From contig JBBTVD010000011.1 in assembly GCA_038063415.1 (NCBI GenBank), positions 779 through 64,778 of the forward strand: DNA of 64,000 nt. Direction: 5' to 3'. Origin of the DNA: Patescibacteria group bacterium (GTDB lineage Bacteria; Patescibacteriota; Microgenomatia; Levybacterales; UBA12049). Below are positions 8,393-24,360 of the stretch, in pieces. The notes beneath the pieces were generated by a model that was given only the letters and a program-made list of their open reading frames with translations, made no database searches and was not told the origin of the DNA. Each line of letters starts with the position of its first letter. Position 1 is the first letter of the stretch. Position numbers and translations under genes: made by a program.

Positions 8393-9202
8393 ATGAAAAA
8401 AGAAACTCCTGTAGAACCAGTCCTAGAATCAGAACCTAAAAAGAAAAAAGATTACTTCACGCTTCGCATTCCTCGATTTAGCTTTGAAAATACAAGAATC
8501 AATGGTTTTCTTGTGGTATGTCTTGTCATTTTTGCCTTCCTGCTTGGTATGCTTGTGAGTAAAGTAACGTACCTTGAAAAGATGGCTACGCAGTCAGCTC
8601 CGACACCAGCAGCACCAGGGGCCGCAGAGCCAACGATTGCTCCCCCTCCACAAATTGTGGATGTAGCATCTGGTAAGCTACCTATTCTTGGTGACCCAAA
8701 TGCAAAAGTAACCGTGGTTGAGTTTAGCGACTTTCAATGTCCGTTCTGTAAGAGAGCATTTGATGATGCTATTGCACAAATAAAGAAAGAATACGTTGAC
8801 ACCAATAAAATCGCTTTTGCTTTCCGTCACTCTCCTCTCACCAGTATCCACCCCAACGCAAGGGAAGCCTCCCTTGCTTCTGAATGCGCAAATGAGCAGG
8901 GTGATTTTTGGACATACCATGACCAACTCTTTAATACACAAGATGACTGGTCTCCAAAGGCAGGCAACGCAGCAACTGACGCGTTCATAGAGATTGCTGG
9001 AGGATTGGGAATGGACGCTGATCAATTTAGATCATGCCTTGAGTCTGAGAAGCATGCACCAAGAGTTGATGCAGACATGCAAGATGCTTCAACAGTTCAA
9101 GTAGATGGGACACCAACCTTCTTTATTAATGGCTATCGAGTAGTCGGAGCCGTACCTTTTGCTGATATCAAGAAAGTAATTGAAGCCGAATTAAAGAAAT
9201 AA
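8393..9202 (+). CDS. DsbA/BdbD-family thiol:disulfide oxidoreductase, membrane-anchored
   Basis: N-terminal transmembrane helix, then a thioredoxin-fold active site FSDFQCPFCKRAF (CPxC) and the FINGY motif typical of the DsbA family. Confidence 0.8.
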   Translation: MKKETPVEPVLESEPKKKKDYFTLRIPRFSFENTRINGFLVVCLVIFAFLLGMLVSKVTYLEKMATQSAPTPAAPGAAEPTIAPPPQIVDVASGKLPILGDPNAKVTVVEFSDFQCPFCKRAFDDAIAQIKKEYVDTNKIAFAFRHSPLTSIHPNAREASLASECANEQGDFWTYHDQLFNTQDDWSPKAGNAATDAFIEIAGGLGMDADQFRSCLESEKHAPRVDADMQDASTVQVDGTPTFFINGYRVVGAVPFADIKKVIEAELKK

Positions 9203-9844: not shown

Positions 9845-10489
9845 TCATTTCGTGTTGTATCTGTTCATTGCCGTTTCCAGTCCTTTTTCGAGTGCAAGAC
9901 TCAGAGCATCAGCACCATGGTTAATCATCTCCCGTACCTTCCCTTGTTCATTTTGGGTAAAAGGGGCAAGCACTAAGTCTTCTGCATCTCGGATATGCTC
10001 ACGCCCCAAGGAATGACTCTTCCCATCTTCAAGAGCGCTTCTCCCACGACGGGCTACCCCAATACCCATGCGAAATCGCCAGAACTGGTCGGTTGCCAGC
10101 TGCGCCATAATTGATTCAACCCCATGATGTCCGGCTGCCGCCCCACCAAACCTAATCTTCATAAAGCCAACCGGTAAATCAAGCTCATCATACACAACCC
10201 AGACATCTTCCGTAGCAATTTTATAGTAGGAAGTAAGAAGTTGCACCGCCATACCAGAGTTATTCATGTAGGTTTGTGGTTTTGCGAGGATGAGTTTTTC
10301 TTCATTACCGTCTTTCCCCTTCCAATCAATCGTAACAACATCACTTTTGAGTTTACTATTGGCAGACCACGTAGCTTTTTCGACAGATGAAATCTCTTTG
10401 AGGAAATGATCAACGACCGCAAAACCCAGATTGTGTCGGGTAGAGGCATACTTTTCTCCTGGATTTCCGAGACCGACAATAAGCTTCAT
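9845..10489 (-). CDS. pth: Peptidyl-tRNA hydrolase
   Basis: MKLIVGLGNPG...HNLGF N-terminus and overall Pth length and architecture. Confidence 0.9.
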   Translation of the reverse strand: MKLIVGLGNPGEKYASTRHNLGFAVVDHFLKEISSVEKATWSANSKLKSDVVTIDWKGKDGNEEKLILAKPQTYMNNSGMAVQLLTSYYKIATEDVWVVYDELDLPVGFMKIRFGGAAAGHHGVESIMAQLATDQFWRFRMGIGVARRGRSALEDGKSHSLGREHIRDAEDLVLAPFTQNEQGKVREMINHGADALSLALEKGLETAMNRYNTK

Positions 10490-10540
10490 AAAGACATTCC
10501 TATACTACACCATATACAACTTCTTGTGAAGAGCTACATT

Positions 10541-10640
10541 TTTTACGGGTGGCACGACTGGGTCTCCCGTTCGAGCGCCCACAGGAAGCTTCGCTTCTGA
10601 GGACGTCGGAATGGGGTGAGGAGTGACGGATCCCGTAAAG
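10541..10640. repeat. GC-rich palindrome-rich repeat element, family B, copy 1 (intergenic)
   Basis: The ~80-bp core 10556-10635 closely matches 23912-23990. Both contain cgagcgccc, caggaag + short palindrome (gaagcttc here, ggaagatcttcc in copy 2), gaggacgtcgg and ggggtgaggag. It is flanked by the inverted repeat tttacggg/cccgtaaa. GC content is much higher than the surrounding DNA. Confidence 0.7.
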
Positions 10641-10702
10641 ACCAGGTAATAAAAACAAACAGGATCAGTTACCTGATCCTGTTTGTAAGATAAATACAAA
10701 GG

Positions 10703-11134
10703 TTATTTATACTGCCCCTTGATCTCAAAAAGCAAATAAAACCCAATAATAATACCTAAAACTCCTCCAACTGAGAGAGAGAGTACAGCCGAAACAGCAC
10801 TAATTGCTTCCGACCAAAATAAGAGCGTCCAACCTGCATAGGCATGCTTGGTAAGCTTTGGATATGCCATAAGCATCAGAATACTTGAAACGATTGCTAG
10901 TACTCCTGAAGCCATCACCATAAAGCTAGCCTCTACTCCTCCAAGTATTGCTACTGGAGAAATACCAATTGCGCCAAGTCCTACAATAATACCAAGAATA
11001 CCAAAAACGAGTGCAAGAATTGGTGCGATCTTGACCAGTACTTCCTGAATATTTTTAGGAAGATGAGGAGCTTGTTTGAAGACTCCTTCCAGCATACCAA
11101 TCAGATCATTTGCTTGTGATTTTTTTTCTGCCAT
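10703..11134 (-). CDS. Hypothetical small integral membrane protein (about 4 transmembrane helices)
   Basis: 143 aa dominated by Gly/Ala/Ile/Leu hydrophobic helices. Confidence 0.5.
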   Translation of the reverse strand: MAEKKSQANDLIGMLEGVFKQAPHLPKNIQEVLVKIAPILALVFGILGIIVGLGAIGISPVAILGGVEASFMVMASGVLAIVSSILMLMAYPKLTKHAYAGWTLLFWSEAISAVSAVLSLSVGGVLGIIIGFYLLFEIKGQYK

Positions 11135-11232
11135 GTGTATTCACCCCCTTTCATACGCAACAACTATCTCAATGATAACAGAAAATACTTCGGAGAACAG
11201 AGAGCATTACGAAGTTATTTGGTTCTTACCTT

Positions 11233-11291
11233 GTCATTCCTGCGTAGGCAGGAATCCAGAGATCTAGATTCCCACTTTCGTGGGAATGACA
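11233..11291. repeat. Hairpin-pair repeat element, family A, copy 1 (intergenic)
   Basis: gtcattcctgcgtaggcaggaatcca + 8-bp spacer + gattcccactttcgtgggaatgaca. Two inverted hairpin units form terminal inverted repeats. The spurious ORFs 11135..11329 and 11076..11267 read through it. Confidence 0.8.
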
Positions 11292-11311
11292 GAATGGACG
11301 AAAAAGGCTTA

Positions 11312-12646
11312 TCACCAATTCAAACTTAATTGTGGAGAAAGCTTTTTTTTCAACTGCTTTTCTTCTTCTTCGTTCCAAATAGAGACTTTACCATACTCCC
11401 CATCGTACCCAGGAACAATAGCAATATTTCCTTCCCTCACTTTCTTTACTCCTGCTGATACCTGAGGTCCCGCAATATGTGCGATGTCTGCAATAGGTGC
11501 CTTCAGAAGGATATAAAACTCTGACTGCAACTCATGACAAAGCCGTATAAACATATTCTTTACCTTTTGACTAGCCACAGTCGAATGCATGGCCTCAGCA
11601 ATGATCTCGTTAAGAGGGATAAGCTTTACATAAGGAGGCTGCTTCTGCTGTGTATCGGTATGCCATTTGAGTCCTTGTGGATTAATCTTCTGTGTAACTC
11701 TGGTAAGAAGTGAGGGATCAGCAAGTTCTTGTACTCGATACAAAACTCCTTCAGTCATTCTCCGTTTACAGACAGGACAGATATTTCCATTCGCTCTGAT
11801 CTCTTCTGGTCCTTGTGCAACTTTACAGTTGCGGTGTCCTGAGAAATGGTACTTCCCTTCCTCAGGATAAAACTCAACCGTATAGGCAATGGTATTTGGC
11901 GTATCGACAGAGAAATGCATAATTGCCTTACGTACGTCGTCATACGAAAGCTTCTCAAGATCCATAATCGTTGCTTCCCTTCCCATCTTGGGAGCGCTAT
12001 GCGCATCAGAAAAAGAAAGAATCGTCCGAGTCATCAATTCCTTTACCTGCCAGTTCATGTCAGGATCGCTTGAAAGTCCCGTCTCAATGCCGTAAATATG
12101 CGGTGTTAACTCTTCAAAAGCTTGACGGAGCGATTCATAGCCAGATGCACTCCCGTAGATACCAAAGTGTGGCGTCCAGACGTGACAAGGGATCAGAAGG
12201 CATCGTTCGTCAATCGAAAGAATAAGCTCAAGCAGTTGTTTTGACCATAGACCAATAATTGGCCTTCCGTCAGCAGACAAATTGCAACCATGTTTAAGAA
12301 GAGCTGCGGTAATCTTTTCTGCAACCTGCATGCTCGGAGCAAAGACTAAATTATGGATTCTTCTCAGTTTGTCGTTTTGTTTGTAGATGTTTGAAATTTC
12401 TGTTGAAAAGAGAAAGCGAATCTTTTGATGTGGAGATACTTCTTTCTTTAATCGATACAAGCCCTCATCTGCTTCATCAAGTTGTCCCTGGATCTCTTTG
12501 AACCACAGCGGATGGGTAAAATCACAAACGGTCAGTATGTCCAATCCTTTTTGGGTGGCAACTTCGGCCATTACGGGAAGTGTCATTTGTGGAGAAACAG
12601 CACGGGAGTATTTGGAATGGAGATGCAAATCAGTCACATACTGCAT
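11312..12646 (-). CDS. PHP-domain nuclease, EndoQ-like (N-terminal PHP domain plus C-terminal Cys4 zinc finger)
   Basis: DLHLHSKYSRAVS PHP metal-binding N-terminus and a C-terminal CPVCKRRMTEGVLYRV-type zinc ribbon, 444 aa. The architecture matches endonuclease Q. Family assignment is from memory of EndoQ and was not searched. Confidence 0.6.
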   Translation of the reverse strand: MQYVTDLHLHSKYSRAVSPQMTLPVMAEVATQKGLDILTVCDFTHPLWFKEIQGQLDEADEGLYRLKKEVSPHQKIRFLFSTEISNIYKQNDKLRRIHNLVFAPSMQVAEKITAALLKHGCNLSADGRPIIGLWSKQLLELILSIDERCLLIPCHVWTPHFGIYGSASGYESLRQAFEELTPHIYGIETGLSSDPDMNWQVKELMTRTILSFSDAHSAPKMGREATIMDLEKLSYDDVRKAIMHFSVDTPNTIAYTVEFYPEEGKYHFSGHRNCKVAQGPEEIRANGNICPVCKRRMTEGVLYRVQELADPSLLTRVTQKINPQGLKWHTDTQQKQPPYVKLIPLNEIIAEAMHSTVASQKVKNMFIRLCHELQSEFYILLKAPIADIAHIAGPQVSAGVKKVREGNIAIVPGYDGEYGKVSIWNEEEEKQLKKKLSPQLSLNW

Positions 12647-12787
12647 GGGATTTATTGTAACATAGACAAAGAAAAAACAGTAAACCTTGTCGCAGCTATT
12701 ACGTCATGCTGGCTTGTCCAGCATCAGTATCTCAATCAAGATTCTGGATGCGCTCCGCTTGTCGCTTACCAGAATGACGGATCTATG

Positions 12788-14647
12788 CTACTCACTTTTC
12801 CCTTGTAATTTATACATTGCAATCAATTCTTTTACACTAGTCGCATCCTCTGCTTTTTTATCTTTGTCCCGAAAGGTAATCAGACGTGGGAACCTGAGTG
12901 CATAACCAGCTTCTTTCACCACTTTGGCTTCCTCCCCTTCTTGGACTTCTTCCTCATTCATCCCTGCCGTATGCATGGGGCTTCTGGTAATCTCATCAGC
13001 CAATACCTCAATAACGATTTTAGGCTTCACCCAGACGCTTGGGGTAATAAGTGACTCCACACGAGCAGGCTTATGCTCAAGTTCTAGCCCTTTTGTCTTT
13101 TCAGCAATACTTCGCCATTCATCATCGCTCAGTCCCGTCCCAATCCGTGAAACCGTCACAAAAGCATCTTTTTCCTCATCATACAGACCAACGAGCAGTG
13201 CCCCCGCCCCAAATGAAGCTCGTTTCCCTTTGCCATAAATGTATCCTAAGATCACGCAATCTATGGTATCGGTCAGATCACCAGCCGAATGTCTTTTGAG
13301 TTTTACCCAGTTAAAATTACGCCCTCCAGCCTCATACAATGAATCAGGCCGTTTGATAACAACTCCTTCAAGGCCTTTGGAAATCGAATCATCAAGGAGG
13401 AGCTGCAGCTCTTCGGGTTCTTTTAAGACCTTTCCAGGAGAAGGAATGAGCGTCTCACTGCCATCAATAATCCGCTCTAGCGCTTCCATTCGCTCCATAA
13501 GTGGCGTATCAATAAGTGACTTCCCATCCGCATACAGGATGTCAAAGACAAATGCCCGCAGAGGTAATTCCTTGGCTACTGCATCAATGTTATGTTTGCG
13601 ACGGCGTTTGGTTGTCTCTTGAAATGGAAGAAACTCTTCAGAGGCCGGATTGTACGCGAGTGCTTCAGAATCAAGAATTGCCGTTTTGGCTTTCACTTGC
13701 CTCCGCGTCCCCGCAATAAGCTCAGGGAACATATGCGTCATATCTTCAAGATTACGAGAGAACATGGAAACCTTCTCCCCATCTTTATGGATCTGTACCC
13801 GAAAGCCATCGTATTTCGGTGTCGCCTGTACCCCTCTAAGCACCTTTTCTCCGTTATCTGTCATCCTCGACTTGATCGGGGATCCATCCTTCTGGATTCC
13901 CGCTTTCGCGGGAATGACAATTGTTGACATCTTCTCAAAAACCTTAACAGGATTGGGCAGACGTTCACAAAGTTCAGACCGAATGGGGCGACCCACGGTA
14001 ACCGTTAGCTTTTGTACCGCCTCAAGTCCTTGATCCATTAATGTCTTGCCAATCAGTCCCAAATCTGAAGTCTCATTGTATGCTTTCTCAAGTAACTTTC
14101 GTTTACTTCGATCCCCCAGAATTGCAAGACTCACTGCATCAAGAATGGTGGGATCGCCAATTCCAAGACGTGCTTTACCAAGCACAATTCGCACAAGATG
14201 CTTTACAGAAGAGCTATCAAGTTTTTTTAGTAGTTCTGAGAAGAGTGTTCGCTTCTTCTCGACAGTCCCCTCGCCAGAAATATGCGCAAGATCCGTTAAC
14301 AGAGCAAAAACTTCTCCGACGGTAAGCTTGCCTCTTCCTTCTTCACCCTTTCCCCGTAACTGTTTCGCAACCTTCCCCATATCTCCCATTTGTTGATACA
14401 CCTCCCACACTGCTTCTTTGGTTGAATCAAATGCTTGCGCAAGAGCTGCCGAGACAGTTTTGTCTGCCATACCAAATTCAACCGGAGCATAAAAAGGAGC
14501 TACTCTCCCCTGAGAGAGGTACATAACCTTGTCAATTTCGTCAGAAGATACTTGCTTAAAAAGCTCTGACAAAATATCGATTAATGCTAATCGAGACGAG
14601 GTCTCTTCAAGTTTGTCAAAATAAGCTGCGAGTTCTGAAAAAGTCAT
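12788..14647 (-). CDS. ATP-dependent DNA ligase
   Basis: Adenylation motif I KYDGFRVQIH (KxDG), a downstream OB-fold region, 619 aa. Carries an in-frame family-A repeat insertion (VIPAKAGIQKDGSPIKSRMTDNG). Confidence 0.9.
   Translation of the reverse strand: MTFSELAAYFDKLEETSSRLALIDILSELFKQVSSDEIDKVMYLSQGRVAPFYAPVEFGMADKTVSAALAQAFDSTKEAVWEVYQQMGDMGKVAKQLRGKGEEGRGKLTVGEVFALLTDLAHISGEGTVEKKRTLFSELLKKLDSSSVKHLVRIVLGKARLGIGDPTILDAVSLAILGDRSKRKLLEKAYNETSDLGLIGKTLMDQGLEAVQKLTVTVGRPIRSELCERLPNPVKVFEKMSTIVIPAKAGIQKDGSPIKSRMTDNGEKVLRGVQATPKYDGFRVQIHKDGEKVSMFSRNLEDMTHMFPELIAGTRRQVKAKTAILDSEALAYNPASEEFLPFQETTKRRRKHNIDAVAKELPLRAFVFDILYADGKSLIDTPLMERMEALERIIDGSETLIPSPGKVLKEPEELQLLLDDSISKGLEGVVIKRPDSLYEAGGRNFNWVKLKRHSAGDLTDTIDCVILGYIYGKGKRASFGAGALLVGLYDEEKDAFVTVSRIGTGLSDDEWRSIAEKTKGLELEHKPARVESLITPSVWVKPKIVIEVLADEITRSPMHTAGMNEEEVQEGEEAKVVKEAGYALRFPRLITFRDKDKKAEDATSVKELIAMYKLQGKSE
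13860..13919. repeat. Family A repeat, copy 2, inside the ligase CDS in frame
   Basis: Degenerate unit 1 (gtcatcctcgacttgatcggggatcca) plus unit 2 gattcccgctttcgcgggaatgaca at 13895-13919. Translated as VIPAKAGIQ in the ligase. Confidence 0.75.
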
Positions 14648-14654
14648 ACTTTTC

Positions 14655-15707
14655 TTATGCCATCACATATTTGGCACCTTTGGTGCTTCCTTGTTTGCGG
14701 ATTAAGCCGTTTTTGATAAGTGCCTTCAGCTCATTGAGTACCGTATCCTCAGAGACCATTGGGAAGAGTTGTTTAAAACCGTTATTTTGTAAATGCCCTG
14801 TTTTTTGGATATATTCGATAATCTTTAACTGTCGGTCAGAAAGAAGGACAGGTGCCCCCCCCAAACGTTCTTTGAGCTTGCCGTCAACAGAAATTTTTTC
14901 AATCTTCTCTTTAATTTTGGCAAGTTCAATCGCAAGTCCTTCAGTAAAGTACTCCAACCATTCGGTCAAATCTCCAAAATGCTGTTCGACGCTTTGAAGA
15001 GCAGCATAATACCTTGTGGCATCGTTATCAAAATACTCTTCAAGTGAGAAGAACTTCCGAATGTCGTAACCTTCTTGGAAGAGAATAAAGGTAGACAATA
15101 CTCTCGAAACTCGTCCGTTACCATCAATAAATGGATGAATTCGCGCAAGCTCATAATGTACACTCCCACTTTTCAGAATCGGATGAATCTCATCTTCTTG
15201 CGTTTTATTAATAAATTCTAAAAGCTCTTGTATTTGAAATGGCACAGCAAGGGCAACAGGTGGACGGAAGGTTACTTCTCCGGTAAGGCTATTCTTGACC
15301 ACTACTTGGGTTGTACGGTACTCTCCGCATTTCTCAAACGGTAGAATCTTCTCCACCGTCATCTTGTGTAGTTGCCTAATAAAATCTTCATCAATGGTCT
15401 TATGTGCTTCTTCAGTTTTATTTTGATCAATATATTCCATTACCCGACGGTAATTAATAACCTCCTGAATATCCCGCTCACGAGCCATAACTGCATGTCC
15501 TTCCATAACCTTTTCAGCTTGCGTAAGATTGAGCTCGTTTCCTTCAATATGCGTCCCGTGATGGACACTTCGTACCATAGCGTCTTTACGAAACTCCTTT
15601 TCGTAGTATGGAAGCAGCGGTGCATGATCGATCACTTCACGGCTTGCTTCGATCACCCCAATCTGTCTGAGGATTTTATTGGTAATTTTATATTTTGGAG
15701 CGTACAT
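14655..15707 (-). CDS. Fic/DOC family protein with a C-terminal winged-HTH domain
   Basis: Canonical Fic motif HPFIDGNGRVSR, an N-terminal (S/T)xxIEGN-like helix (GTHIEGN), a C-terminal HTH-like tail, 350 aa. Confidence 0.9.
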   Translation of the reverse strand: MYAPKYKITNKILRQIGVIEASREVIDHAPLLPYYEKEFRKDAMVRSVHHGTHIEGNELNLTQAEKVMEGHAVMARERDIQEVINYRRVMEYIDQNKTEEAHKTIDEDFIRQLHKMTVEKILPFEKCGEYRTTQVVVKNSLTGEVTFRPPVALAVPFQIQELLEFINKTQEDEIHPILKSGSVHYELARIHPFIDGNGRVSRVLSTFILFQEGYDIRKFFSLEEYFDNDATRYYAALQSVEQHFGDLTEWLEYFTEGLAIELAKIKEKIEKISVDGKLKERLGGAPVLLSDRQLKIIEYIQKTGHLQNNGFKQLFPMVSEDTVLNELKALIKNGLIRKQGSTKGAKYVMA

Positions 15708-15753
15708 AGCTACTGGTATTATTGATCATTTCCCGAAAAAAGGCAAGAAGCCG

Positions 15754-15762
15754 TGCTATAAT
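15754..15762 (+). promoter_or_regulatory. Extended -10 promoter (TGcTATAAT) 7 nt upstream of an ATG, predicting a leaderless transcript
   Basis: gtgctataat at 15754-15762 and the ATG at 15769. No clear -35. Confidence 0.35.
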
Positions 15763-15768
15763 ATCGGC

Positions 15769-16041
15769 ATGCCAACCCAAAAAGCAATCGCACAAGAGAA
15801 ACTACACTTAGAAATTCTCAAGCAAATGATTACGCTTGCTACCAGTGGCTTTGGACTAGTAGCCGCGCTTGCCTGGAATAACGTCATTCAGGAATTTATG
15901 AAGGTCTATGTGAACAGATGGCTTCCACAAGGTGGGAGTGTTGTATCGCTTCTCTTCTATGCCGTTCTCGTAACTGTCTTTGCGGTGGTTGTTACCTATC
16001 AATTAACCAAACTTGCTGAACTTTCAGAGCGGAAGAAGTAA
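15769..16041 (+). CDS. Small membrane protein (90 aa, 2 transmembrane helices)
   Basis: Internal Met of ORF 15679..16041. Two clear hydrophobic helices. The ORF's upstream part is implausible. Confidence 0.45.
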   Translation: MPTQKAIAQEKLHLEILKQMITLATSGFGLVAALAWNNVIQEFMKVYVNRWLPQGGSVVSLLFYAVLVTVFAVVVTYQLTKLAELSERKK

Positions 16042-16968
16042 TGTACGCATCACTTGAGGAATCTCTTCTGTCAGATCTGAAGCATTAAAATAATACCCAA
16101 CCCGCTCAAACAAAGCTTCTCCTGCCTTCTTATTGAAGTAACTTCCAGCAGTTGCAGCCAGATACAACTCATTTTTACAGGCAAGAGCAGCGACAAGTCC
16201 AGCCAAAACATCCCCTGTCCCTCCTTTGGTCATACCGGCATTCCCTCCAGAGATCTCAACCCACTGTTCTGGAGAACATACGATATCCTTCTCCCCTTTG
16301 AGGAGAATGGTACAGTTATACTTTTTAGCTACCTGCTTTATAGTGTCATGCTGAACTTGTTTCAGCATCTTTTTATCCTTTGTTTGAAGATTCCGAAACG
16401 AGTTCGGAATGACAGGAGAAAACACTCTCCCAAACTCTTGATGATGGGGCGTCAGAATCACATTCCCGTTGAGTGGAAGCAACCATTCTGGCTCAAGCAT
16501 CTGCAGGGCTCCAGCATCAATGATCCATTTTTTCTTAGGATAGGTTGCAAGCAGATACTTCGTCAGATAGTACGTCTGCATACCTTCGTCCTCTACGAGA
16601 AGAATCTCCTCCAATTTACCATTTACCATTTGCCATTTGCCATTTGCATGTTCTGTCCGAACCATCCCTGGACCAATAAGCACGGCGTCAGCTTCCTCAA
16701 TATACGCATCAATATCTTCCTGTCTGACGATAATGCCATTTCGAAACTCTTTTTTGAGCGACTCAACCAGCAGGTTGTTCTCCGCAACCGAAGAATAAAA
16801 GACCATATCAACAATCTTTGAAGCAATTTGCAATGCCCACAGAGAAGCTGCATGAAAAAGTTGGGAACCTCCAATAATCATCAGTTTTCCATTCTGTCCT
16901 TTGTGAGAACCTGCAGGAGGAACGTAGATATCTTTGAGTAATTCAGGATCAAATTGCTGCATAGTCAT
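16024..16968 (-). CDS. nnrD: ADP-dependent NAD(P)H-hydrate dehydratase (YjeF C-terminal / carbohydrate-kinase-like)
   Basis: GKLMIIGGS near the N-terminus, LTPHHQEF (LTPHxGEF motif), and GGTGDVLAG near the C-terminus. Carries an in-frame family-A repeat insertion directly after the HHQEFGR motif. Confidence 0.8.
   Translation of the reverse strand: MTMQQFDPELLKDIYVPPAGSHKGQNGKLMIIGGSQLFHAASLWALQIASKIVDMVFYSSVAENNLLVESLKKEFRNGIIVRQEDIDAYIEEADAVLIGPGMVRTEHANGKWQMVNGKLEEILLVEDEGMQTYYLTKYLLATYPKKKWIIDAGALQMLEPEWLLPLNGNVILTPHHQEFGRVFSPVIPNSFRNLQTKDKKMLKQVQHDTIKQVAKKYNCTILLKGEKDIVCSPEQWVEISGGNAGMTKGGTGDVLAGLVAALACKNELYLAATAGSYFNKKAGEALFERVGYYFNASDLTEEIPQVMRTLLLPL
16345..16414. repeat. Family A repeat, copy 3 (variant units), in frame inside nnrD
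   Basis: Unit 1' gtcatgctgaacttgtttcagcatc (hairpin) + spacer + unit 2' gattccgaaacgagttcggaatgaca. Translated as VIPNSFRNLQTKDKKMLKQVQHDT. Confidence 0.75.
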
Positions 16969-18028
16969 TTTTTAACTCTATCACACTCCCTTCCCCTAGC
17001 GAAAGAGTTGACAAGAATTCTTTATGGGTTGTTGTAAGAACTGTCTGGCATTGATCCATTACGGTAAGGACATGCTGAATATGTCCACTATCAAGTTCTG
17101 AAAAAATATCGTCCAAAAGTAACAATGGCTGTTTACCCAAAGCTTCAGCAATCAACGTAATTTGGGCAAATTTAAGCTCCAAGGTTACTAATCTTTGCTG
17201 TCCACGAGAAGCAACTGAGCGAACTTGCTCCCGCTTGCCGGAGACAGGATGCTCCATCTGGATAAAGACTTCATCACGATGAGGACCCACAAGCGTCACG
17301 CCCGATCCAATCTCCGCGTGCTTGTATTGAGCCAAGCGCTCTACCGAGATACTACTTTTATCGTACTCCAATGTAAAGGGAAATAACTTCTTTTCCTGCT
17401 TATTAATCTGTGTAATAAGTTCTTCTCGTTTCTTGGTAATATAGTTTCCTGTCTTAATCAGCAAAGTATCCCAGTAGGCAAATCGCTCTTCATCACGGTA
17501 GCCCTGCTCTCGTGCCTGCTCAAGAAGGGCATTACGTTGACGTAAAGCTTTGGTATAAGTGGTCAGCGCATTTGTGTATGCCGTATCAATTTGCTCGAGA
17601 ATCTCATTAAGGAAGTTTCTCCGCATGGAAGGTTGCCCGGAAACGAGGTCAAGGGTCTCAGGAGTAAAAAGGACAACCGGCAAATGTGAAGCAAAATCTA
17701 CCCGTCTTCGAGGGATACTATTTACCAGATATTTTTTTTGTACTGCCGAACCTGTACGATCAGTAAAAAGCATCTCAAGCGTTTTCGAATCGGTATCTTC
17801 CCCTTCAATAATTGCTTTGATTCGACCAAAAGGTTTTCCAAAAAGGATTACTTGTCCATCTTTTTCAGATTTGAAACTCTTTCCGGTAAAAGAGAACACA
17901 AGTGATTCAACAAAATTTGTCTTTCCGACAGCGTTGGGTCCAACCACTACCGTTAATCGAGGATCAAACTGAAAGGCTGCAGTTGTATAATTTCTGAAAT
18001 GTTGCAGAGAGAGTGTACGTAAAATCAT
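16949..18028 (-). CDS. recF: DNA replication and repair protein RecF
   Basis: N-terminal Walker A GPNAVGKTN, SMC-like signature and a C-terminal Walker B LLLDD, 359 aa. Confidence 0.9.
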   Translation of the reverse strand: MILRTLSLQHFRNYTTAAFQFDPRLTVVVGPNAVGKTNFVESLVFSFTGKSFKSEKDGQVILFGKPFGRIKAIIEGEDTDSKTLEMLFTDRTGSAVQKKYLVNSIPRRRVDFASHLPVVLFTPETLDLVSGQPSMRRNFLNEILEQIDTAYTNALTTYTKALRQRNALLEQAREQGYRDEERFAYWDTLLIKTGNYITKKREELITQINKQEKKLFPFTLEYDKSSISVERLAQYKHAEIGSGVTLVGPHRDEVFIQMEHPVSGKREQVRSVASRGQQRLVTLELKFAQITLIAEALGKQPLLLLDDIFSELDSGHIQHVLTVMDQCQTVLTTTHKEFLSTLSLGEGSVIELKNDYAAI

Positions 18029-18048
18029 CGTTACTAAGATACAATGAT

Positions 18049-18759
18049 TTATTCTATCACGGTTCCAACAAAAGGCTCACCTTTGAAGTAGTTACGAATA
18101 TTAGCAAAATCATTACCTGAGAGTAATACCACCCGTGTACCACTTGCTTGTGCCTTTTTGGCTGCAATAGGATCAAACGGAGCATGCATACCTGGTGTCC
18201 ATTTGTCACCAATCAACTTGCGGAAATCTTCCCAGGAAATCTTATCTATTGGCTTGGCATCGGGGAAGGTATTGGGGTCACGATTAAAGAGTTGGGAGAC
18301 ATTACTAAGGTTAATGACGGTATCGACGTGGTAGTCTTCGGCAAGCATCGTAGCACAATAGTCTGTCGACCATCCAGGTTTCCAGCCTCCAGCCACCACA
18401 ACAGGCTCCGTTGCTTTACGGATAATATCGTAATTTTTGATAATATAAGGATGGGCAATATCTCGGAAGATCGTACGAACGAGGTGTGCATTCAGTCGGG
18501 TTGCATGAAGTCCCAGCCAATCCATATCGTTGTAAGTTAGTTCATGCCCTATGACTTCTTGCCCTGCCTGAGCATATTGCCTAGCGGTTGCTCCCCCACC
18601 TACGACCAAAAAAAACTGACGCTTGGTATCTGCTGCCAGTTGAGACCGGATAAAGGTATTGAGATTACTAAGAAAGGGAGTATTAACGTCGTCACCGGGA
18701 ACAACAAGAGAGCCTCCGACTGAAATGATAGTTCTTTTGACTCCTTTACTATTCGCCAT
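18049..18759 (-). CDS. Amino-acid-kinase family protein, most likely a UMP kinase (archaeal/short type)
   Basis: ISVGGSLV and VVGGGATAR glycine-rich loops of the carbamate/amino-acid kinase fold. 236 aa is typical for PyrH. Substrate assignment is inferred. Confidence 0.6.
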   Translation of the reverse strand: MANSKGVKRTIISVGGSLVVPGDDVNTPFLSNLNTFIRSQLAADTKRQFFLVVGGGATARQYAQAGQEVIGHELTYNDMDWLGLHATRLNAHLVRTIFRDIAHPYIIKNYDIIRKATEPVVVAGGWKPGWSTDYCATMLAEDYHVDTVINLSNVSQLFNRDPNTFPDAKPIDKISWEDFRKLIGDKWTPGMHAPFDPIAAKKAQASGTRVVLLSGNDFANIRNYFKGEPFVGTVIE

Positions 18760-18836
18760 AGCTCCTCCGCACTGAGTGCTTTAATAATAATAGCAGAAAG
18801 GCTAAGCAAAAACAACCCATAAGTTGTCAAAAGATG

Positions 18837-19775
18837 TCAACATTGGCAAGAGCTACAGAAAAACGTTCCCCGCCCTCCGAGTACACATCTTTGAATTATT
18901 GTGCCACAAAGAGGGCATGCTTGTCCATCTTTTTTATACACAAGAAAATGTTTCTGATAATTGCCCTGCGTACCAAGCACACTGATATAGTTATTTGCCG
19001 ATGCTCCCCCCAGCGCAATACTTTTGGTGAGCAATGCCTCGATTGCGACAAAGAGCTTCTGTTGTTCAGATGGGGATAAAGAGCTTGCCGAACGAGTTGG
19101 GAGAATCCCCGCCTGGAAGAGTGCATCATTGGCATAAATATTCCCCACACCGGCAATCCTTCGCTGATCCATAAGAACGGTCTTTATAGGCGATCTGGTA
19201 GCCTTCAGAATGGTTTTAAAATCCTTAAGTGTCAAATCTCGCAACGGCTCCTTCCCAAGAGACTTAAAAAAAGGCAAAAAGGCTACTTCTTCTGTAGGAA
19301 CAACCTGAATCCAGCCAAACTGCCGGATGTCACGATAGTACAACACCGCTCCCCGATCCAAATGAAAAATGACATGTGTGTACTTGTCTGGAAGATCTTC
19401 CAAAGAAAACTGAGAAAAGGATGTAGCATTTTTTTCGTTCGCATCCTGAACTCCTTGATTATTTTTTAAATATGATTGTGTGAATTGCGGAACAGAAAAA
19501 TGTTGCAATCCAATCTCAGATTCTTTATCTTTTGCTGGTTTGTACAATAGCTGCCCCGTCATCTTCACATGAATGGCCAAACTCATATTATTTGAAAAAT
19601 CAATCACCAACCCTTTCCCAAACTTTCTGGCACCACTGACCTTAGCTCCGGTAATTAACTTCGGATCTCCACGAAACTGTTTGGGGAGAGTAATCACAAT
19701 ATCCAAGATCGTGTGTCCTACCAGATGTTTCTTCAGACCAAGACGAATTGTTTCTACTTCAGGAAGTTCAGTCAT
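18837..19775 (-). CDS. Fpg/Nei-family DNA glycosylase (formamidopyrimidine-DNA glycosylase-like) with a ~50-aa insertion
   Basis: Starts MTELPEVE (P2 and E3 catalytic residues). Has an H2TH region and a C-terminal zinc finger CPLCG...CSSCQ. The called start at 19835 is probably spurious. Confidence 0.85.
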   Translation of the reverse strand: MTELPEVETIRLGLKKHLVGHTILDIVITLPKQFRGDPKLITGAKVSGARKFGKGLVIDFSNNMSLAIHVKMTGQLLYKPAKDKESEIGLQHFSVPQFTQSYLKNNQGVQDANEKNATSFSQFSLEDLPDKYTHVIFHLDRGAVLYYRDIRQFGWIQVVPTEEVAFLPFFKSLGKEPLRDLTLKDFKTILKATRSPIKTVLMDQRRIAGVGNIYANDALFQAGILPTRSASSLSPSEQQKLFVAIEALLTKSIALGGASANNYISVLGTQGNYQKHFLVYKKDGQACPLCGTIIQRCVLGGRGTFFCSSCQC

Positions 19776-19782
19776 GAGGAGA

Positions 19783-20193
19783 TTATAGCAGGCCTCTTTC
19801 CTTAAAATACTTTTCAGAAGGACGAGGCAAAGCAAGTGACTTTAACTCAGACAGCTTTATCCACTGCAAACTGACCAAATCGTCGGCCGCTACAGCATCT
19901 ATACCCTCCGGTTCTATACGGAAGACCAAAAAGACATAATGCGTTAGCTCTCCATGCTTATCAGGCTCATAATCCTCATCAAACGCTACTCGCTCTATCT
20001 TCTTTACCGACAAACCAGTCTCTTCTGTAACTTCCCGCTTCACCGCATCATGCACCGATTCTTCGCCGAGATTGACTCCACCACCCGACAAATGCCACGT
20101 GTTAGGATAGGGTCCAGTATTTTCCTTCTTCTTCCCAAGAAGTACCTTTCCCTCTTTTTCAATAATAGCCGTAACTACTAATCGCGATTTCAT
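19783..20193 (-). CDS. NUDIX hydrolase
   Basis: Nudix box GGGVNLGEESVHDAVKREVTEETGL, 136 aa. Confidence 0.85.
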   Translation of the reverse strand: MKSRLVVTAIIEKEGKVLLGKKKENTGPYPNTWHLSGGGVNLGEESVHDAVKREVTEETGLSVKKIERVAFDEDYEPDKHGELTHYVFLVFRIEPEGIDAVAADDLVSLQWIKLSELKSLALPRPSEKYFKERGLL

Positions 20194-21374
20194 ACTTTTT
20201 TTTGCTTTACCTTGGCAGACACAAACGCTTGTATTTGCTTCATAAAGCGTTCTTTTGAAAACTTCTCTGCTTGTTTTTTACACTCCACTTGCATTTTGTC
20301 ATGCTGAACTTGTTTGCGCATCTCAAACCTTTTAATTGCCCGAGACAACCCTTCAGCAGTAAGCTTGTCAAAAAAGATTCCCGTCTTCCCATCGATAACG
20401 GTTTCTTTTACACCGCCCCCCCCGTAGGCAATCACGGGTATCCCACAAGCCATTGCCTCAACTGGTGTAATCCCAAAATCCTCATCGGCAGCAGCAAAAA
20501 GGAATGCCTTGGCACCCTGCATTAGACGCAATTTTTCTTCTTCGTTTACTTCGCCAACAAACGCAACCGTCTTCCCCGCCAACGACTGTAACTCTTCTCC
20601 ATAGCCAGCAAAGGATTTACCAAAAACTTTCAATGGCACACCAAGATCGGTACACGCCTGGACAATCAGATCAAAATGCTTCGCACGAGCCAAGCGACCA
20701 CCAGCAAGATAGTATGCTTTTGACTTGTCATTCCGGGCTTGACCCGGAATCCATTCCATTCTAGATTCCCGCCTTCGCGGGAATGACAATAAAGAAATGT
20801 CCACTGGAGGGTAAATCACGGTCGAATCCCTTCGATAAAACTTCCTAATTCTCCCCGAAACCTCTTGTGAATTGGCAATAAACCAGTCAACCTGTTGTGC
20901 TATCCGAAAATCACTCAGTCGCAGGAAATGATTTGCTATCGTAGCAAACGCTGCTACGAGCTTATGCTTCTTCCAGCTACGTGCGGTTGCATACCCATAG
21001 AGATATCGAGGTGGTGTATGACAGTAGCAAATATGCACTTCCTTCCCCTTACGAATCGCGTTTGGAAAAAAGGCGCCGGTTGCTGAGACAATAACCACAT
21101 CATACGAAGAGAAATCAAATTGCCCAAAAACAGAAGCTGAAATGACTCGAAAAGGGCTTAGGAGTTTGTAGTTAAATGGCACATGTTGGAACCAAGTTGT
21201 CTTAATCTTCCACCCTGAGAAACGCTTTCTATGTGGGCCAAGGAACTTGGGTAAATAGACAGATGTATACACATCCGCATCTGGATAGATCTCGTGCAAA
21301 GCCTCAAGCACCCGTTCTGCACCCCCATACTCTTTGATGTAATCATGGACTAACGCAACCTTTATCTTTTTCAT
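20190..21374 (-). CDS. Glycosyltransferase family 4 (GT-B fold)
   Basis: C-terminal EDFGITPVEAMACGIPVIA (the E-x7-E region of GT4). Carries two family-A repeat insertions (SFPRRRESRMEWIPGQARNDKSKA, and a C-terminal MRKQVQHDKMQ). Confidence 0.8.
   Translation of the reverse strand: MKKIKVALVHDYIKEYGGAERVLEALHEIYPDADVYTSVYLPKFLGPHRKRFSGWKIKTTWFQHVPFNYKLLSPFRVISASVFGQFDFSSYDVVIVSATGAFFPNAIRKGKEVHICYCHTPPRYLYGYATARSWKKHKLVAAFATIANHFLRLSDFRIAQQVDWFIANSQEVSGRIRKFYRRDSTVIYPPVDISLLSFPRRRESRMEWIPGQARNDKSKAYYLAGGRLARAKHFDLIVQACTDLGVPLKVFGKSFAGYGEELQSLAGKTVAFVGEVNEEEKLRLMQGAKAFLFAAADEDFGITPVEAMACGIPVIAYGGGGVKETVIDGKTGIFFDKLTAEGLSRAIKRFEMRKQVQHDKMQVECKKQAEKFSKERFMKQIQAFVSAKVKQKKV
20296..20322. repeat. 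Family A repeat, solo degenerate unit 1', inside the glycosyltransferase CDS
   Basis: gtcatgctgaacttgtttgcgcatc. Same unit as at 16345 and 48997 with two substitutions that break the hairpin. Translated as MRKQVQHDK. Confidence 0.6.
20727..20788. repeat. Family A repeat, copy 5, in frame inside the glycosyltransferase CDS
   Basis: gtcattccgggcttgacccggaatcca + spacer + gattcccgccttcgcgggaatgaca. Translated as RRRESRMEWIPGQARND. Confidence 0.8.
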
Positions 21375-21409
21375 ATAATCTATTATACTGTATTAAGAAT
21401 CAATCTGTT

Positions 21410-21931
21410 ATGGCTGCTACTGAAAAAGGAGTATTCTCTGAAAAATTTCCAACTCGCCCCCAAGATCCTGCCGAAGGAGTCCGAAGGCAAAAGCTGGAAG
21501 AAGCCTATTCTCAGGTAGATACGTTCCTTAACGAAGCGACCATAGATTCTCCTCACATAAACGTAGCCATGAGTCTTATGACTGAACTAGTCGAAGAAGC
21601 AACAATGGCCAATCTTCAACGGTTTGAATCGGGTATAGACGAGACAGGAGTCCTTGCCAGCATACAACTGAGCCCACAAAGAATGCCAGAAGAAACTAAA
21701 AAACCAGAAAATCTTCTCGCTAGAAGATTTTATGCTATTATCGCTACAGTTGAGTCACCTGAACTCGCACTTTATCGCACAGATCATACTGCAGGAGATA
21801 GAATCCTTCAAGTATTAGCAGGACGAAAACGCATTGCTGCAAAAATTGGTGAAAGGGGGGGGAATATTTTAATTACAGCTGGAAAGCTATTCTCAAAATT
21901 ACCTCCTAAAAAATCCCAACCAAGCTCATAA
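21410..21931 (+). CDS. Hypothetical protein (173 aa)
   Basis: Complete ORF. No motif recognised. Confidence 0.45.
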   Translation: MAATEKGVFSEKFPTRPQDPAEGVRRQKLEEAYSQVDTFLNEATIDSPHINVAMSLMTELVEEATMANLQRFESGIDETGVLASIQLSPQRMPEETKKPENLLARRFYAIIATVESPELALYRTDHTAGDRILQVLAGRKRIAAKIGERGGNILITAGKLFSKLPPKKSQPSS

Positions 21932-22586
21932 AAACCTCATCAGCACCTGCCTCTGTGAGCTCTTTTCTGATCTTTTCGTCCTTGTTTACCCCATAGACAA
22001 GCATGCCAGCAGCCTTTCCTGCTTTGACACCATTTACTGAATCTTCAAGTACGAGGCATGCCTCAGGCTGTTTTTGCAGCTTTTGTGCAGTTATGAGAAA
22101 AACGTCCGGGTGAGGCTTCCCTCGATGGACTTCATCACAGGACACAATCAACGGAAAATACTCTTGCAAATGAAACGTCTCAAGCATTTTGACCATACTC
22201 TCTTTGGTATGACCTCCCGTCGCAATCGCTAAAGGAAGCTGGCTCCCGGCAAGCAAAACAATAAGATCCTTTGCACCTGGAAGCAATCGCATTGTCCCCG
22301 GGTTAAGAAAGTTGTGATAGAACATATTACGATATTCTTCCAATAAAACAGTGAGGGGTTGTGCAAGATGGTATCGTTCTCGCAGTTCAGTAAAAAAATC
22401 TTTCAACCCAATCCCAGGCCGATCCTCCGTAAGAGCCGCTTTATCCGTGATGTTATGCTTCCTCAAAAACTCTTCATAGGTTTTTTGCCACGAAGGCTCA
22501 GAGTCAATTAAGAGTCCATCGACATCAAAAATAACCGCCTGGATATTATTTTTCATATACCTCCTCATGTGTGCCAATATCGACAA
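21906..22586 (-). CDS. HAD-superfamily hydrolase, subfamily IA (beta-phosphoglucomutase/phosphatase-like)
   Basis: Motif I AVIFDVDGLLIDSE, a motif II Ser/Thr, and a motif IV Asp pair near the C-terminus. Confidence 0.85.
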   Translation of the reverse strand: MSILAHMRRYMKNNIQAVIFDVDGLLIDSEPSWQKTYEEFLRKHNITDKAALTEDRPGIGLKDFFTELRERYHLAQPLTVLLEEYRNMFYHNFLNPGTMRLLPGAKDLIVLLAGSQLPLAIATGGHTKESMVKMLETFHLQEYFPLIVSCDEVHRGKPHPDVFLITAQKLQKQPEACLVLEDSVNGVKAGKAAGMLVYGVNKDEKIRKELTEAGADEVFMSLVGIF

Positions 22587-22607
22587 ATGGAGAGAAATTA
22601 GCTTTCA

Positions 22608-22898
22608 TTATGAAACATGGCAAAAAAATGTTGAAGCGTCAACTGCTTTATCCTTTTCTTCTAATGCCTTTTTCAGCCTTCTCTCGCTTCTTTTTGACAT
22701 CGTTTTTACAGGATATAATTGCCCTTCCAAATTCGCTATTACCTGTTTTGCTGTATGCTTCTCTTCCTTTACTTCCTTCGCGAGTATTTTTTTGACAAAC
22801 TCAGAGACAGACAGACCGAGCTCATCTGCTTTGGCTTTTAGCAAATTGCCAAACTCTTGTGGCACATCAATAGTAAGGTGTATCTGTATAGTTTTCAT
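22608..22898 (-). CDS. Small ribbon-helix-helix-like DNA-binding protein (putative)
   Basis: Starts at the internal MKTIQIHLTIDVPQEF. A beta-strand then two helices is typical of CopG/Arc-type antitoxins or regulators. Assignment is tentative. Confidence 0.35.
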   Translation of the reverse strand: MKTIQIHLTIDVPQEFGNLLKAKADELGLSVSEFVKKILAKEVKEEKHTAKQVIANLEGQLYPVKTMSKRSERRLKKALEEKDKAVDASTFFCHVS

Positions 22899-22959
22899 CG
22901 TAAGGTCATTATAACTTTCTCTCGTTGACAAGACAAGACAAGACAAGTAATATGGATGT

Positions 22960-23334
22960 ATGGTCGATGGAGCAGAATCACGGGAAACAAATCAAACTCC
23001 TGAAGAAATAGCTACTGAACTCTTACACAAGGCTACATGGGGTTCACCTGCATTATATGCAGCTCAAGATTTTGCCGAGTTTTGTCTTGCTGATGGATAT
23101 GAGCCATCTGTCAGAGAAAAAAAAAGAGAAAAAATCAATGATCGTATAACTGAACATCGATTGGAAAAGCCAGGATATGGGTATACTTTGGCTCAATTTA
23201 ATGCACTATATCCAAACCTCGCTAGAAATAGGACTGCTGTAACTTTTGGTGCAAATTTATATGGGAAAGTACAGGAGATTACTGATAGACCTGCGCCTTC
23301 TCCAGAACCTCCTCCACTATCACAACAACCCTAG
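22960..23334 (+). CDS. Hypothetical protein (124 aa)
   Basis: ORF preceded by a TTGACA-N17-TAATAT promoter-like sequence (22925-22953) embedded in a (gacaa)x4 tandem repeat. Confidence 0.4.
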   Translation: MVDGAESRETNQTPEEIATELLHKATWGSPALYAAQDFAEFCLADGYEPSVREKKREKINDRITEHRLEKPGYGYTLAQFNALYPNLARNRTAVTFGANLYGKVQEITDRPAPSPEPPPLSQQP

Positions 23335-24360
23335 CTGCTCCTGTTCCTTGCCAAACTGCGTATCAAGCCGCTTGAGCAAACTATTGAATTCATGCTCTTT
23401 AAAGGTCTTACGAAGGGCAGCAATATCAAAATCTGCACAGGCACAATCAGCAAGATCAAACTGAATTGGTGCATCAGTGATGATCTGGGCGAGTTTTTTG
23501 GCAAGTGCAGATTGCTCAGCATCAGTTGCTAGCTTCAGCCCAATCTTTTCAGGAAGCTCCCCTATTTTTTCATACAGGTTCTCAAAGGTTTTGAACTCTT
23601 GTAGGAGCTTACTGGCAGTCTTTGGACCAATTCCTGTCACGCCAGGATAACCATCTGATGGGTCGCCAATCAGCGCCTTATAATCGACAAACTGACTCGG
23701 ATGTACCCCATATTTCTCCTCAACTGCCGCTTCATCGTACATAACCGTCTTGGTAATCCCTGTCTGTGGCATCATTACCTTTACCTGAGGGTTCACTAGC
23801 TGTAACAAATCCCGATCCCCTGTCAGAATGACGACCTCTAATTCGTTAGTATGATCGGAGGCTGTATTGCGAGGGGGGGCAGTCGTGGGATTCAATTGAG
23901 AGTGGGTGACGCGACTGGGGTCCCCTGCTCGAGCGCCCGCAGGAAGATCTTCCGAGGACGTCGGAGCGGGGTGAGGAGCGTCAGGACCCGCTGAGACAAC
24001 AGCCTTCGTCGCAATTGTCCCAATCAAATCATCCCCCTCATACCCATCCAACTCAAAAATCTCTACCTTCATCGTCCGCAGCAACTCCCGGATCAGATGC
24101 ATCTGGGAAATTAGATCATCAGGAGGAGGTTGCCTATTCTCGTGATACCCAGCAAAAAGAGTCTGTCTAAAGGTTGGTGCAGCACGATCAAAACAGACAG
24201 CCAGATACTCAGGCTTCTGATCCTCGAGCACAAGAAAAAGCATGGTAAAGAAGCCATAAATAGCGTTTACAAATTCTCCTTTGGGATTGGTGAGTGTCGG
24301 ATAGGCATGATAGGCGCGGTATAAGATAGCGTTACCATCGATAAGAAGAAGCTTCTGCAT
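23320..24360 (-). CDS. 5'-3' exonuclease (Pol I N-terminal / FEN-like domain, stand-alone)
   Basis: MQKLLLIDGNAILYRAYHA N-terminus, the GYEGDDLIGT and LTGDRDLLQL metal-binding motifs, and an H3TH region. Contains a ~50-aa low-complexity in-frame insertion between the conserved blocks, encoded by repeat family B. Confidence 0.85.
   Translation of the reverse strand: MQKLLLIDGNAILYRAYHAYPTLTNPKGEFVNAIYGFFTMLFLVLEDQKPEYLAVCFDRAAPTFRQTLFAGYHENRQPPPDDLISQMHLIRELLRTMKVEIFELDGYEGDDLIGTIATKAVVSAGPDAPHPAPTSSEDLPAGARAGDPSRVTHSQLNPTTAPPRNTASDHTNELEVVILTGDRDLLQLVNPQVKVMMPQTGITKTVMYDEAAVEEKYGVHPSQFVDYKALIGDPSDGYPGVTGIGPKTASKLLQEFKTFENLYEKIGELPEKIGLKLATDAEQSALAKKLAQIITDAPIQFDLADCACADFDIAALRKTFKEHEFNSLLKRLDTQFGKEQEQLGLL
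23838..23995. repeat. Family B repeat, copy 2, in frame inside the 5'-3' exonuclease CDS
   Basis: The core 23912-23990 matches 10556-10635. It encodes AGPDAPHPAPTSSEDLPAGARAGDPSRVTHSQLNPTTAPP between the GTIATKAV and VVILTGDRD blocks. Confidence 0.7.

Follow-up and report, generated by a model that had tools for sequence, protein, structure and literature searches.

A GC-rich palindromic repeat family of Patescibacteria with intergenic copies and in-frame copies inside genes

The 64,000-nt stretch of contig JBBTVD010000011.1 (assembly GCA_038063415.1, a Patescibacteria group bacterium of the Levybacterales) contains two copies of a GC-rich hairpin element, here named family B, one lying between genes next to pth (peptidyl-tRNA hydrolase) and the other in frame inside the gene of a 5'-3' exonuclease. 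In the following, the window is this full 64-kb stretch, R1 is the covariance model of family B (length 1-97), and the "sense" of the element is the minus strand of the window. Family B is probably a non-autonomous, selfish palindromic DNA repeat of the Patescibacteria, i.e. bacteria of the Candidate Phyla Radiation (CPR), a very large radiation of ultra-small bacteria, and we put the probability of this explanation at about 0.8. An earlier reading of the letters alone (the sequence-only reading) had proposed an independent family of palindromic elements inserting in frame, and the proposal is borne out by at least 76 copies, by a hairpin that covaries, and by the presence of the element both in intergenic DNA and in about 28 host genes.

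Window copies and extent of family B

The copies, and the stem extension at the base of the intergenic one, are located as follows:

10543..10638, minus strand: family-B intergenic copy; R1 88.0 bits, E-value 2.4e-18, full length 1-97, with the family hairpin fold
23900..23993, minus strand: family-B exonuclease copy; R1 89.5 bits, E-value 1e-18, in frame and in sense orientation, translation SAGPDAPHPAPTSSEDLPAGARAGDPSRVTHS
10542..10549, no strand assigned: tttacggg, left half of the basal stem extension, read from the sequence; part of the minimum-free-energy hairpin, pairing with 10632-10639
10632..10639, no strand assigned: cccgtaaa, right half of the basal stem extension, read from the sequence; part of the minimum-free-energy hairpin

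Both GC-rich copies were found where the sequence-only reading had seen them, and the exonuclease copy aligns to the intergenic copy with 80% mean column identity in MAFFT, the R1 E-values being of the order of 1e-18. The sequence blocks quoted for them, CGACTGGG, TCGAGCGCCC, CAGGAAG, GAGGACGTCGGA and GGGGTGAGGAG, are common to both copies in the alignment, but the proposed core of ~80 bp is somewhat too short, the true unit measuring ~97 nt by R1 (10543-10638 and 23900-23993). The central palindrome differs between the copies as described (GGAAGCTTCGCTTCT versus GGAAGATCTTCC), yet forms the hairpin tip in both when they are folded, and the 8-bp inverted repeat tttacggg/cccgtaaa, noted as flanking the intergenic copy, is present and constitutes the basal stem of the same family-B hairpin. 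The GC content of the two copies is 61% and 70%, that of the surrounding genome ~42%.

Beyond the window, the DNA of six exonuclease orthologs sharing the peptide motif of the insert contained the same element at the same site. R1, which was built from 10 copies, detected 12 copies in the first 11 sources, including an in-frame copy in the RecF-like gene of locus L006. A search by peptide profile (83 candidates scored) gave three weak matches, all spurious small open reading frames (ORFs P0121-P0123) lying over intergenic copies in other genomes. In one-genome-per-species contigs searched with a loose DNA pattern, seven of the 120 matches listed were scored by R1, all in Patescibacteria-like low-GC contigs, with records labelled Levybacteria, Levyibacteriota, Saccharibacteria, Patescibacteria (two), 'uncultured bacterium' (the contig of L001) and one binned Lysobacterales. 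A metagenome scan with a stricter pattern resulted in 60 loci, of which all 60 scored 58.8-104 bits with R1, and in nine further copies within the same loci. In viral contigs, the strict pattern had no matches and the loose pattern four, none of them confirmed by R1. After duplicate removal, the copies of family B number at least 76, all distinct, and come from over 60 independent contigs of Patescibacteria; across the 76-copy set the locus GC is 0.36-0.58 and the element GC ~0.7. The copy on the contig labelled Lysobacterales bacterium (L118, DATLNW010000059.1; 7 kb, 41% GC) is a strong one (85 bits), and this is probably a CPR contig in the wrong bin.

Since the window holds just two copies, chance similarity or an assembly artefact of two GC-rich low-complexity stretches may come to mind. 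This explanation is already refuted and its probability is close to nil: the 25-nt core GAGGACGTCGGANNGGGGTGAGGAG has two occurrences in the window (with at most 3 mismatches) and none in 100 dinucleotide-preserving shuffles, the model E-values are ~1e-18, and the element recurs in more than 60 independent assemblies obtained from NCBI, ENA, JGI and Logan. Moreover, the 113 GC-rich decoy loci among the matches listed in the one-genome-per-species search (mostly Actinomycetota and similar) received no R1 score at E-values up to 0.01. [quoted passage not shown]

Hairpin structure and setting of the intergenic copy

The family-B unit is ~97 nt long (86-129 nt) with ~70% GC, in host genomes of ~40% GC, and forms a single long, imperfect hairpin; its sequence is conserved over the lower two-thirds, whereas the tip varies in both length and sequence. 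Both conservation and covariation were seen in the hairpin. When eight copies were aligned with plain MAFFT, RNAalifold recovered 32 pairs, 13 of which stay paired although both sides have changed, and across the analyses the conserved pairs numbered 26-32, with 13 pairs carrying double changes. With 70 distinct copies aligned to the covariance model, 93.3% of the cells were paired, as against 80.8% in shuffled columns and 38-46% in slid controls; 223 cells had double changes, and the covariation score of 0.341, versus 0.122, was reached in none of 500 shuffles. The 70-copy alignment was fitted to the model and hence leans to the structure; the eight-copy MAFFT and RNAalifold result is independent of the model. 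At the foot of the hairpin the bases differ among copies and yet stay complementary, in the flanks and in columns 3/149 and 4/148 of the 70-copy alignment. Among the cells that are not Watson-Crick pairs, G-U and A-C occur in counts of 17:8, 22:14 and 5:6, i.e. with no clear strand preference, which suits a palindrome at the DNA level.

On the plus strand, antisense to the genes around them, the window copies fold at -42.5 and -48.9 kcal/mol (z-scores -2.6 and -3.0). An RNA transcribed from the antisense strand was rejected as an identity for family B: folding of the two window copies favours the plus strand, but family-wide the asymmetry is inconsistent.

A structure of this kind could have been kept for its RNA fold and not for mobility, that is, as a functional structured RNA or cis-acting hairpin (mRNA-stability element, RNase III site, terminator or attenuator, small RNA). 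Strong covariation, sequence blocks conserved across distant CPR lineages, the stability of the plus-strand hairpin (-42 to -49 kcal/mol, antisense to local genes), and the single orientation which the two window copies share relative to local transcription would all agree with such a function. We consider it improbable, on account of the coding copies described below, of the G-U and A-C counts, which prefer neither strand, and of the setting of the intergenic copy, which is delimited by the following features:

9845..10489, minus strand: pth, peptidyl-tRNA hydrolase, downstream of the intergenic copy; Pfam PF01195, E-value 2.8e-55
10655..10686, minus strand: intrinsic-terminator-like hairpin and T tail of the upstream ORF (10703-11134); found by scan, 14-pair stem followed by TTTTATTACC
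10502..10530, minus strand: promoter-like site TTCACA, 17 nt, TAGTAT; found by scan, 9 of 12 matches, weak and no better than in shuffles

Read along the minus strand, the order is the ORF (11134-10703), the terminator-like hairpin (10686-10655), the element (10638-10543), the promoter-like site (10530-10502) and the start of pth (10489). The intergenic copy therefore occupies the gap between two transcription units, a position more in keeping with a passenger than with a small RNA or regulator. With Rfam 15, the window had no match for family B at gathering score and the two copies had no relevant match at E-values up to 10, and a permissive Rfam search returned chance matches only, to the neighbouring terminator hairpin. 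The idea, raised in the sequence-only reading, that the intergenic copy is transcribed as a small RNA found no support, as this copy sits between terminator and promoter and is without an Rfam match, and the coding copies occur in both orientations.

The pth product itself holds ~27 extra residues, since it has 214 aa against a 183-position Pfam profile that is matched end to end; these residues could represent another insertion.

Copies inside genes, reading frame and turnover

The host of the second window copy and the extent of its insertion are:

23320..24360, minus strand: stand-alone 5'-3' exonuclease (FEN-like), 346 aa; Pfam PF02739 and PF01367
23845..23994, minus strand: whole in-frame insertion, about residues 123-172, composed of the family-B element and ~57 nt of extra low-complexity sequence LNPTTAPPRNTASDHTNEL; from ortholog alignment

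The exonuclease is 100% identical to an NCBI protein from a metagenome-assembled genome of 'Patescibacteria group bacterium'. The in-frame insertion of ~50 aa that had been read from the sequence was confirmed on three grounds: orthologs of 296-298 aa are without the segment, so that the window protein is longer by ~50 residues (123-172); the Pfam 5_3_exonuc_N match is split in two, with the break after profile position 118; and the predicted local distance difference test (pLDDT) value of the loop is below 50. In the AlphaFold2 model, made with 25 orthologs as input, the mean pLDDT was 81.7 and 201 residues reached at least 90. Residues 125-170, flanked by a helix (109-122) and a strand (174-179), had pLDDT below 50 and no secondary structure, on which basis the insert is predicted to be a disordered surface loop.

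Coding copies were defined as those within an open frame of at least 200 aa and with at least 25 codons on each side. By this definition 42 of the 76 copies (55%) are coding, in about 28 different, mostly housekeeping host genes, 25 of them in sense and 17 in antisense orientation. Over 30 copies lie between genes or at the end of a gene, and no remnant of a surrounding gene accompanies them. Copies that break a frame would be sorted as intergenic, and the observation that coding copies are always in frame is partly a product of this sorting. In Pfam searches of 30 hosts other than the exonuclease, domains flanked the insert on both sides in most; a few hosts had no domain or only a weak repeat match. 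The hosts are:

Sense orientation: 5'-3' exonuclease, RecF, GT4 glycosyltransferase, Mur ligase, DnaX, topoisomerase I, GatB, PRPP synthetase, CysRS, ArgRS, ATP-dependent DNA ligase, and several proteins without Pfam match
Antisense orientation: Fpg, GlmS, FolD (four contigs, one site), CarB, peptide deformylase (Def), IF-2, RNase HII, UvrD-like helicase-nuclease, substrate-binding protein, PMT_2, TPR protein

In ~15 host families, the 25 sense copies all share a single frame (GGT CCT GTC...), which reads GP(V/A)..(H)P.PT(S/A)S..GARRG.P..T, although in each of the three sense frames 87-96% of the copies are free of stop codons. For ~15 independent host families, single-frame use by chance has an estimated probability of ~2e-7, taken as (1/3)^14. 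G, P, S, T, A and R are abundant in the frame that is used, and the two unused sense frames are more hydrophobic or contain cysteine; the single-frame use looks like a filter on what the host protein tolerates. The 17 antisense coding copies encode a peptide different from that of the sense copies. A functional RNA would account poorly for coding copies in both orientations (25 sense, 17 antisense), for their location deep inside about 28 unrelated, mostly housekeeping genes, and for a strict reading-frame bias, which is a constraint on protein and not on RNA.

The sequence-only reading had named conservation of the exonuclease segment at the protein level as evidence against an inserted element. 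This condition applies in part, GP..HP.PTSS..GARRG.PT being present at the exonuclease site in 9 of 24 aligned orthologs; what recurs, however, is one DNA element at a hot spot common to these orthologs, and no conserved protein domain. The recurrence at one site, and the single frame of all sense coding copies, could in principle be due to a lineage-specific disordered linker or interaction peptide under protein selection, with the intergenic copy as a fragment of a dead gene. This is very improbable and is largely refuted by the more than 30 copies that are intergenic or at gene ends without any gene remnant and by the 17 antisense copies with their different peptide. Nor would selection on the protein be expected to preserve base pairing from arm to arm through sequence changes; the segment is predicted to be disordered, and orthologs 96% identical outside the loop carry an unrelated insert and orthologs 90% identical none.

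The conserved compact structure and the recurrent sites in essential genes (exonuclease, RecF, FolD) might alternatively point to an intervening sequence absent from the mature product, lost by intron-like excision, by ribosomal skipping, or by removal from the protein, and CPR genomes do carry unusual insertions in rRNA genes. We regard this, too, as very improbable: all 42 copies in long open frames keep the frame open (partly due to the sorting), use of one sense frame is expected only if the insert is translated, 33 aa is far too short for an intein, and there is no resemblance to group I or group II introns or to any other Rfam family. An intein or self-splicing intron was rejected as well: the insert is 33-50 aa long, against at least about 130 aa for an intein domain, is predicted disordered, matches no intron family, and keeps the frame, in one phase.

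Other candidates were likewise discarded. Signal recognition particle RNA, transfer-messenger RNA, a retron, or a CRISPR/TIGR repeat do not agree with the lack of an Rfam match or with solitary copies in many unrelated host genes. The template/variable pair of a diversity-generating retroelement is contradicted by the differences between the window copies, which include C/T, G/A and indels and are not adenine-specific, and by the dozens of unrelated host genes; no reverse transcriptase was noted among the called genes of related loci.

Comparison of copies and of their hosts bears on how the insertion sites are occupied. Copies on the same contig were mutual nearest neighbours in L006 (exonuclease and RecF, 0.80), L139 (0.94) and L158 (0.88), and the exonuclease copy was the second-nearest of 72 to the intergenic copy of the window. 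Copies at the exonuclease site of different genomes mostly did not group together, and on an exonuclease tree built without the loop the type of insert was patchy. P0004 and P0005, with 96.4% identity over 281 flanking residues, differ in their inserts, P0005 having family B and P0004 another hairpin element. The latter is ~160 nt long with the termini AAGGGCTCTCTG / CAGAGAGCCCTT, folds at -57 kcal/mol in sense and -74 kcal/mol in antisense, and encodes the peptide GLS..SEDAR...SRSLSESR...FSSSE; its carriers are L011 10001-11047 (P0002) and L193 3001-4047 (P0004), as well as P0010, P0014, P0029 and P0080. P0009, 93% identical, has a third sequence in the loop, and P0010, with the ~160-nt element, is 90.4% identical to P0053, which has no insert. 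As orthologs 90-96% identical outside the loop carry different inserts or none, the exonuclease loop is, by these sequence comparisons, a hot spot of rapid turnover. The extra ~57 nt of the window insertion (LNPTTAPPRNTASDHTNEL, 23838-23895), which lie outside the family-B unit, may be what is left of a previous occupant of this hot spot.

RecF has a hot spot as well, at about residue 76, which holds a full copy in L006 (9512-9608), the right arm only in L003 (13789-13819), and an unrelated palindromic insert in L002 (7338-8495), and it is empty in five orthologs; the right arm in L003 is a decayed half-copy of family B. In FolD of L164, L167, L169 and L174, an antisense family-B copy is placed at one site between two Pfam domains; this may reflect a further hot spot or a single insertion that was inherited.

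Proposed mode of movement, related systems and other window features

As a selfish DNA repeat, family B would increase in number within a genome, with new copies ending up both between and inside genes. Copies in genes would persist only where ~33 extra residues are tolerated, in the one sense frame or in a few antisense frames, and the tolerated positions would be surface loops or linkers of the host protein, the insert being translated there as a disordered loop; in sense, the tolerated copies would give the G/P/S/T/A/R-rich peptide GPV..HPRPTSS..GARRGSPT. In the window, one copy sits in the dead space that separates a terminator from the promoter of pth and the other in a permissive loop of the exonuclease, a hot spot which in related lineages has repeatedly been occupied, swapped and eroded.

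We infer transposition as the origin of the copies, with the hairpin as the structure which an enzyme acting in trans recognises. The mechanism might operate on single-stranded DNA without target-site duplication, by analogy with IS200/IS605 or RAYT (REP-associated tyrosine transposase) elements, a suggestion we make tentatively. Still more speculative, and in our judgement unlikely, is that the hairpin is the substrate of an active, CPR-specific, hairpin-directed insertion system, which would lack target-site duplication and home repeatedly to the exonuclease, RecF and FolD loops, its enzyme being a new structure-specific transposase or homing nuclease. If true, such a system would explain the conservation of the family across Levybacteria, Saccharibacteria and other Patescibacteria as well as the swapping of hairpin families at the same sites.

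Several observations weigh against a selfish, mobile repeat. In no case was transposition observed directly, and no filled/empty pair of family B with near-identical flanks was found, so that the exact ends of the element are not fixed. The flanks of 71 copies, with the ends unfixed, contained no target-site duplication or target motif, and their bases were complementary, not duplicated; likewise, when orthologs with 93-96% identity outside the insert were compared three ways, neither a duplication nor a motif appeared. Arm-specific hidden Markov models (HMMs), run over ~594 kb of CPR loci, detected no arms separated by coding DNA and no arm-flanked transposase, the solo arms amounting to one remnant. 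The copies at the exonuclease site could descend from one old, vertically inherited insertion that seeded daughters, and the similarity of copies within a genome would also fit vertical inheritance with daughter copies, or gene conversion between copies. Strong conservation of the copies among lineages with just 60-70% protein identity, and the clear covariation, would both also fit a functional structure. In single-sequence folding, the RNA-parameter z-scores are only modest (-2.1 to -3.0 in three of four strand folds, -1.7 in the fourth) and the DNA-parameter z-scores of the window-copy folds are just -0.9 to -1.5, which makes folding energies of this type weak evidence for the hairpin.

Among known systems, the Rickettsia palindromic elements (RPEs) are by behaviour, and by analogy, the closest kind to family B. 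The MITE review PMC10969869 describes them as ten families (RPE-1 to RPE-10; Ogata et al. 2000) of ~150 bp, which in R. conorii account for 44 insertions in unrelated metabolic genes, nearly half of them in frame, each encoding a conserved peptide. Family B in turn has a long-hairpin unit of 86-129 nt, dispersed intergenic and in-frame copies, and a conserved peptide (25 of 25 sense copies). The two are alike in being dispersed palindromic repeats of ~100-150 bp in the small, AT-rich genome of a host-dependent bacterium, with many in-frame copies in unrelated housekeeping genes that encode a conserved peptide and others between genes, in having inserts compatible with the fold of the host protein, and in a mechanism of movement that is unexplained in both. 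They differ in the host phylum, Patescibacteria and not Rickettsia, and we do not assign family B to the named RPE families. Moreover, unlike RPEs, family B is strongly GC-rich against its genome, is conserved across several CPR classes, lies in genes in both orientations, and shares insertion hot spots of fast turnover with other hairpin families.

Bacterial MITEs (Correia elements of Neisseria, ERIC, QMITE1/2 of Coxiella, RUP/BOX) are also short non-coding repeats with inverted-repeat ends able to fold into a hairpin, and some of them make in-frame fusions with host ORFs (PMC10969869). Typical MITEs, however, have defined terminal inverted repeats matching a parent insertion sequence (IS), and target-site duplications. 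As the flanks of 71 copies showed no duplication and the ~594 kb of CPR loci no parent IS, family B is not placed among classical MITEs; the whole unit is, in addition, one hairpin with variable, complementary foot bases. Repetitive extragenic palindromes (REPs) and their paired form REPIN, associated with RAYT proteins, i.e. IS200/IS605-like Y1 transposases, are imperfect palindromes in which the hairpin is conserved and target-site duplication is absent, and they are thought to move as single-stranded DNA. REPs are 20-40 nt long, strictly extragenic, usually arranged as inverted pairs, and have a conserved 5' tetranucleotide, in contrast to the solitary ~97-nt unit of family B with 55% of its copies inside genes; a REP/REPIN identity was rejected on size and on the location of copies inside genes. 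No RAYT gene was noticed, though none was sought. The GC clusters of yeast mitochondria and the double-hairpin elements of Allomyces mitochondria are GC-rich palindromic mobile elements of AT-rich small genomes, some of them in frame (var1). They belong to organelles, not to bacteria, and are expected to have no sequence relationship to family B.

In PMC10969869, in-frame palindromic repeats within essential genes are treated as a peculiarity of Rickettsia. Family B is of interest because it extends this phenomenon to a major bacterial radiation; if true, an unrelated, parallel family in Patescibacteria would mean that the phenomenon arises repeatedly in small, host-dependent genomes. The family would also add a source of protein length variation and of new disordered loops in the most conserved enzymes. 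In practice, the elements inflate or split gene calls (as in P0121-P0123) and disturb ortholog alignments and HMM matches; they might also be of use as strain markers. With a conserved hairpin, strict frame use and hot spots in common, they offer a handle for finding the mechanism of movement and its enzyme in complete CPR genomes.

Some further hairpins were observed beside family B. Short hairpins such as GGGTCCTGCCCCGGG and GCGGGTCCTTCCCGC (followed by a T run), which share the 5' motif GGGTCCTG of the element, occur just upstream of some family-B copies, namely in L132 (copy 8725-8822), L133 (2505-2603) and L154 (2313-2419). Family A, a separate family, consists of ~65-nt double-hairpin palindromes with the termini TTGTCATTCC...GGAATGACAA, and there is also a related TGTCATGCTGAAC... 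variant. Its positions in the window, including the variant, are:

11231-11291, 13878-13920, 20725-20789 and 42474-42502: family A or related variant
16343-16422, 48996-49066 and 20297-20327: also family A or related variant

Two family-A copies are inside ORFs, i.e. in the ATP-dependent DNA ligase (12788-14647) and in ORF 20190-21374. A GC-rich island (65% GC) at 1276-1353 has a strong hairpin of -29.5 kcal/mol and may be a third palindromic element. The window additionally encodes a tRNA-Ile with the anticodon TAT (UAU), uncommon in bacteria, at 36933-37006, and on the minus strand it contains two matches to the AdoCbl-II (cobalamin) riboswitch above gathering score, 41826-41902 and 42738-42809, ~900 nt apart.

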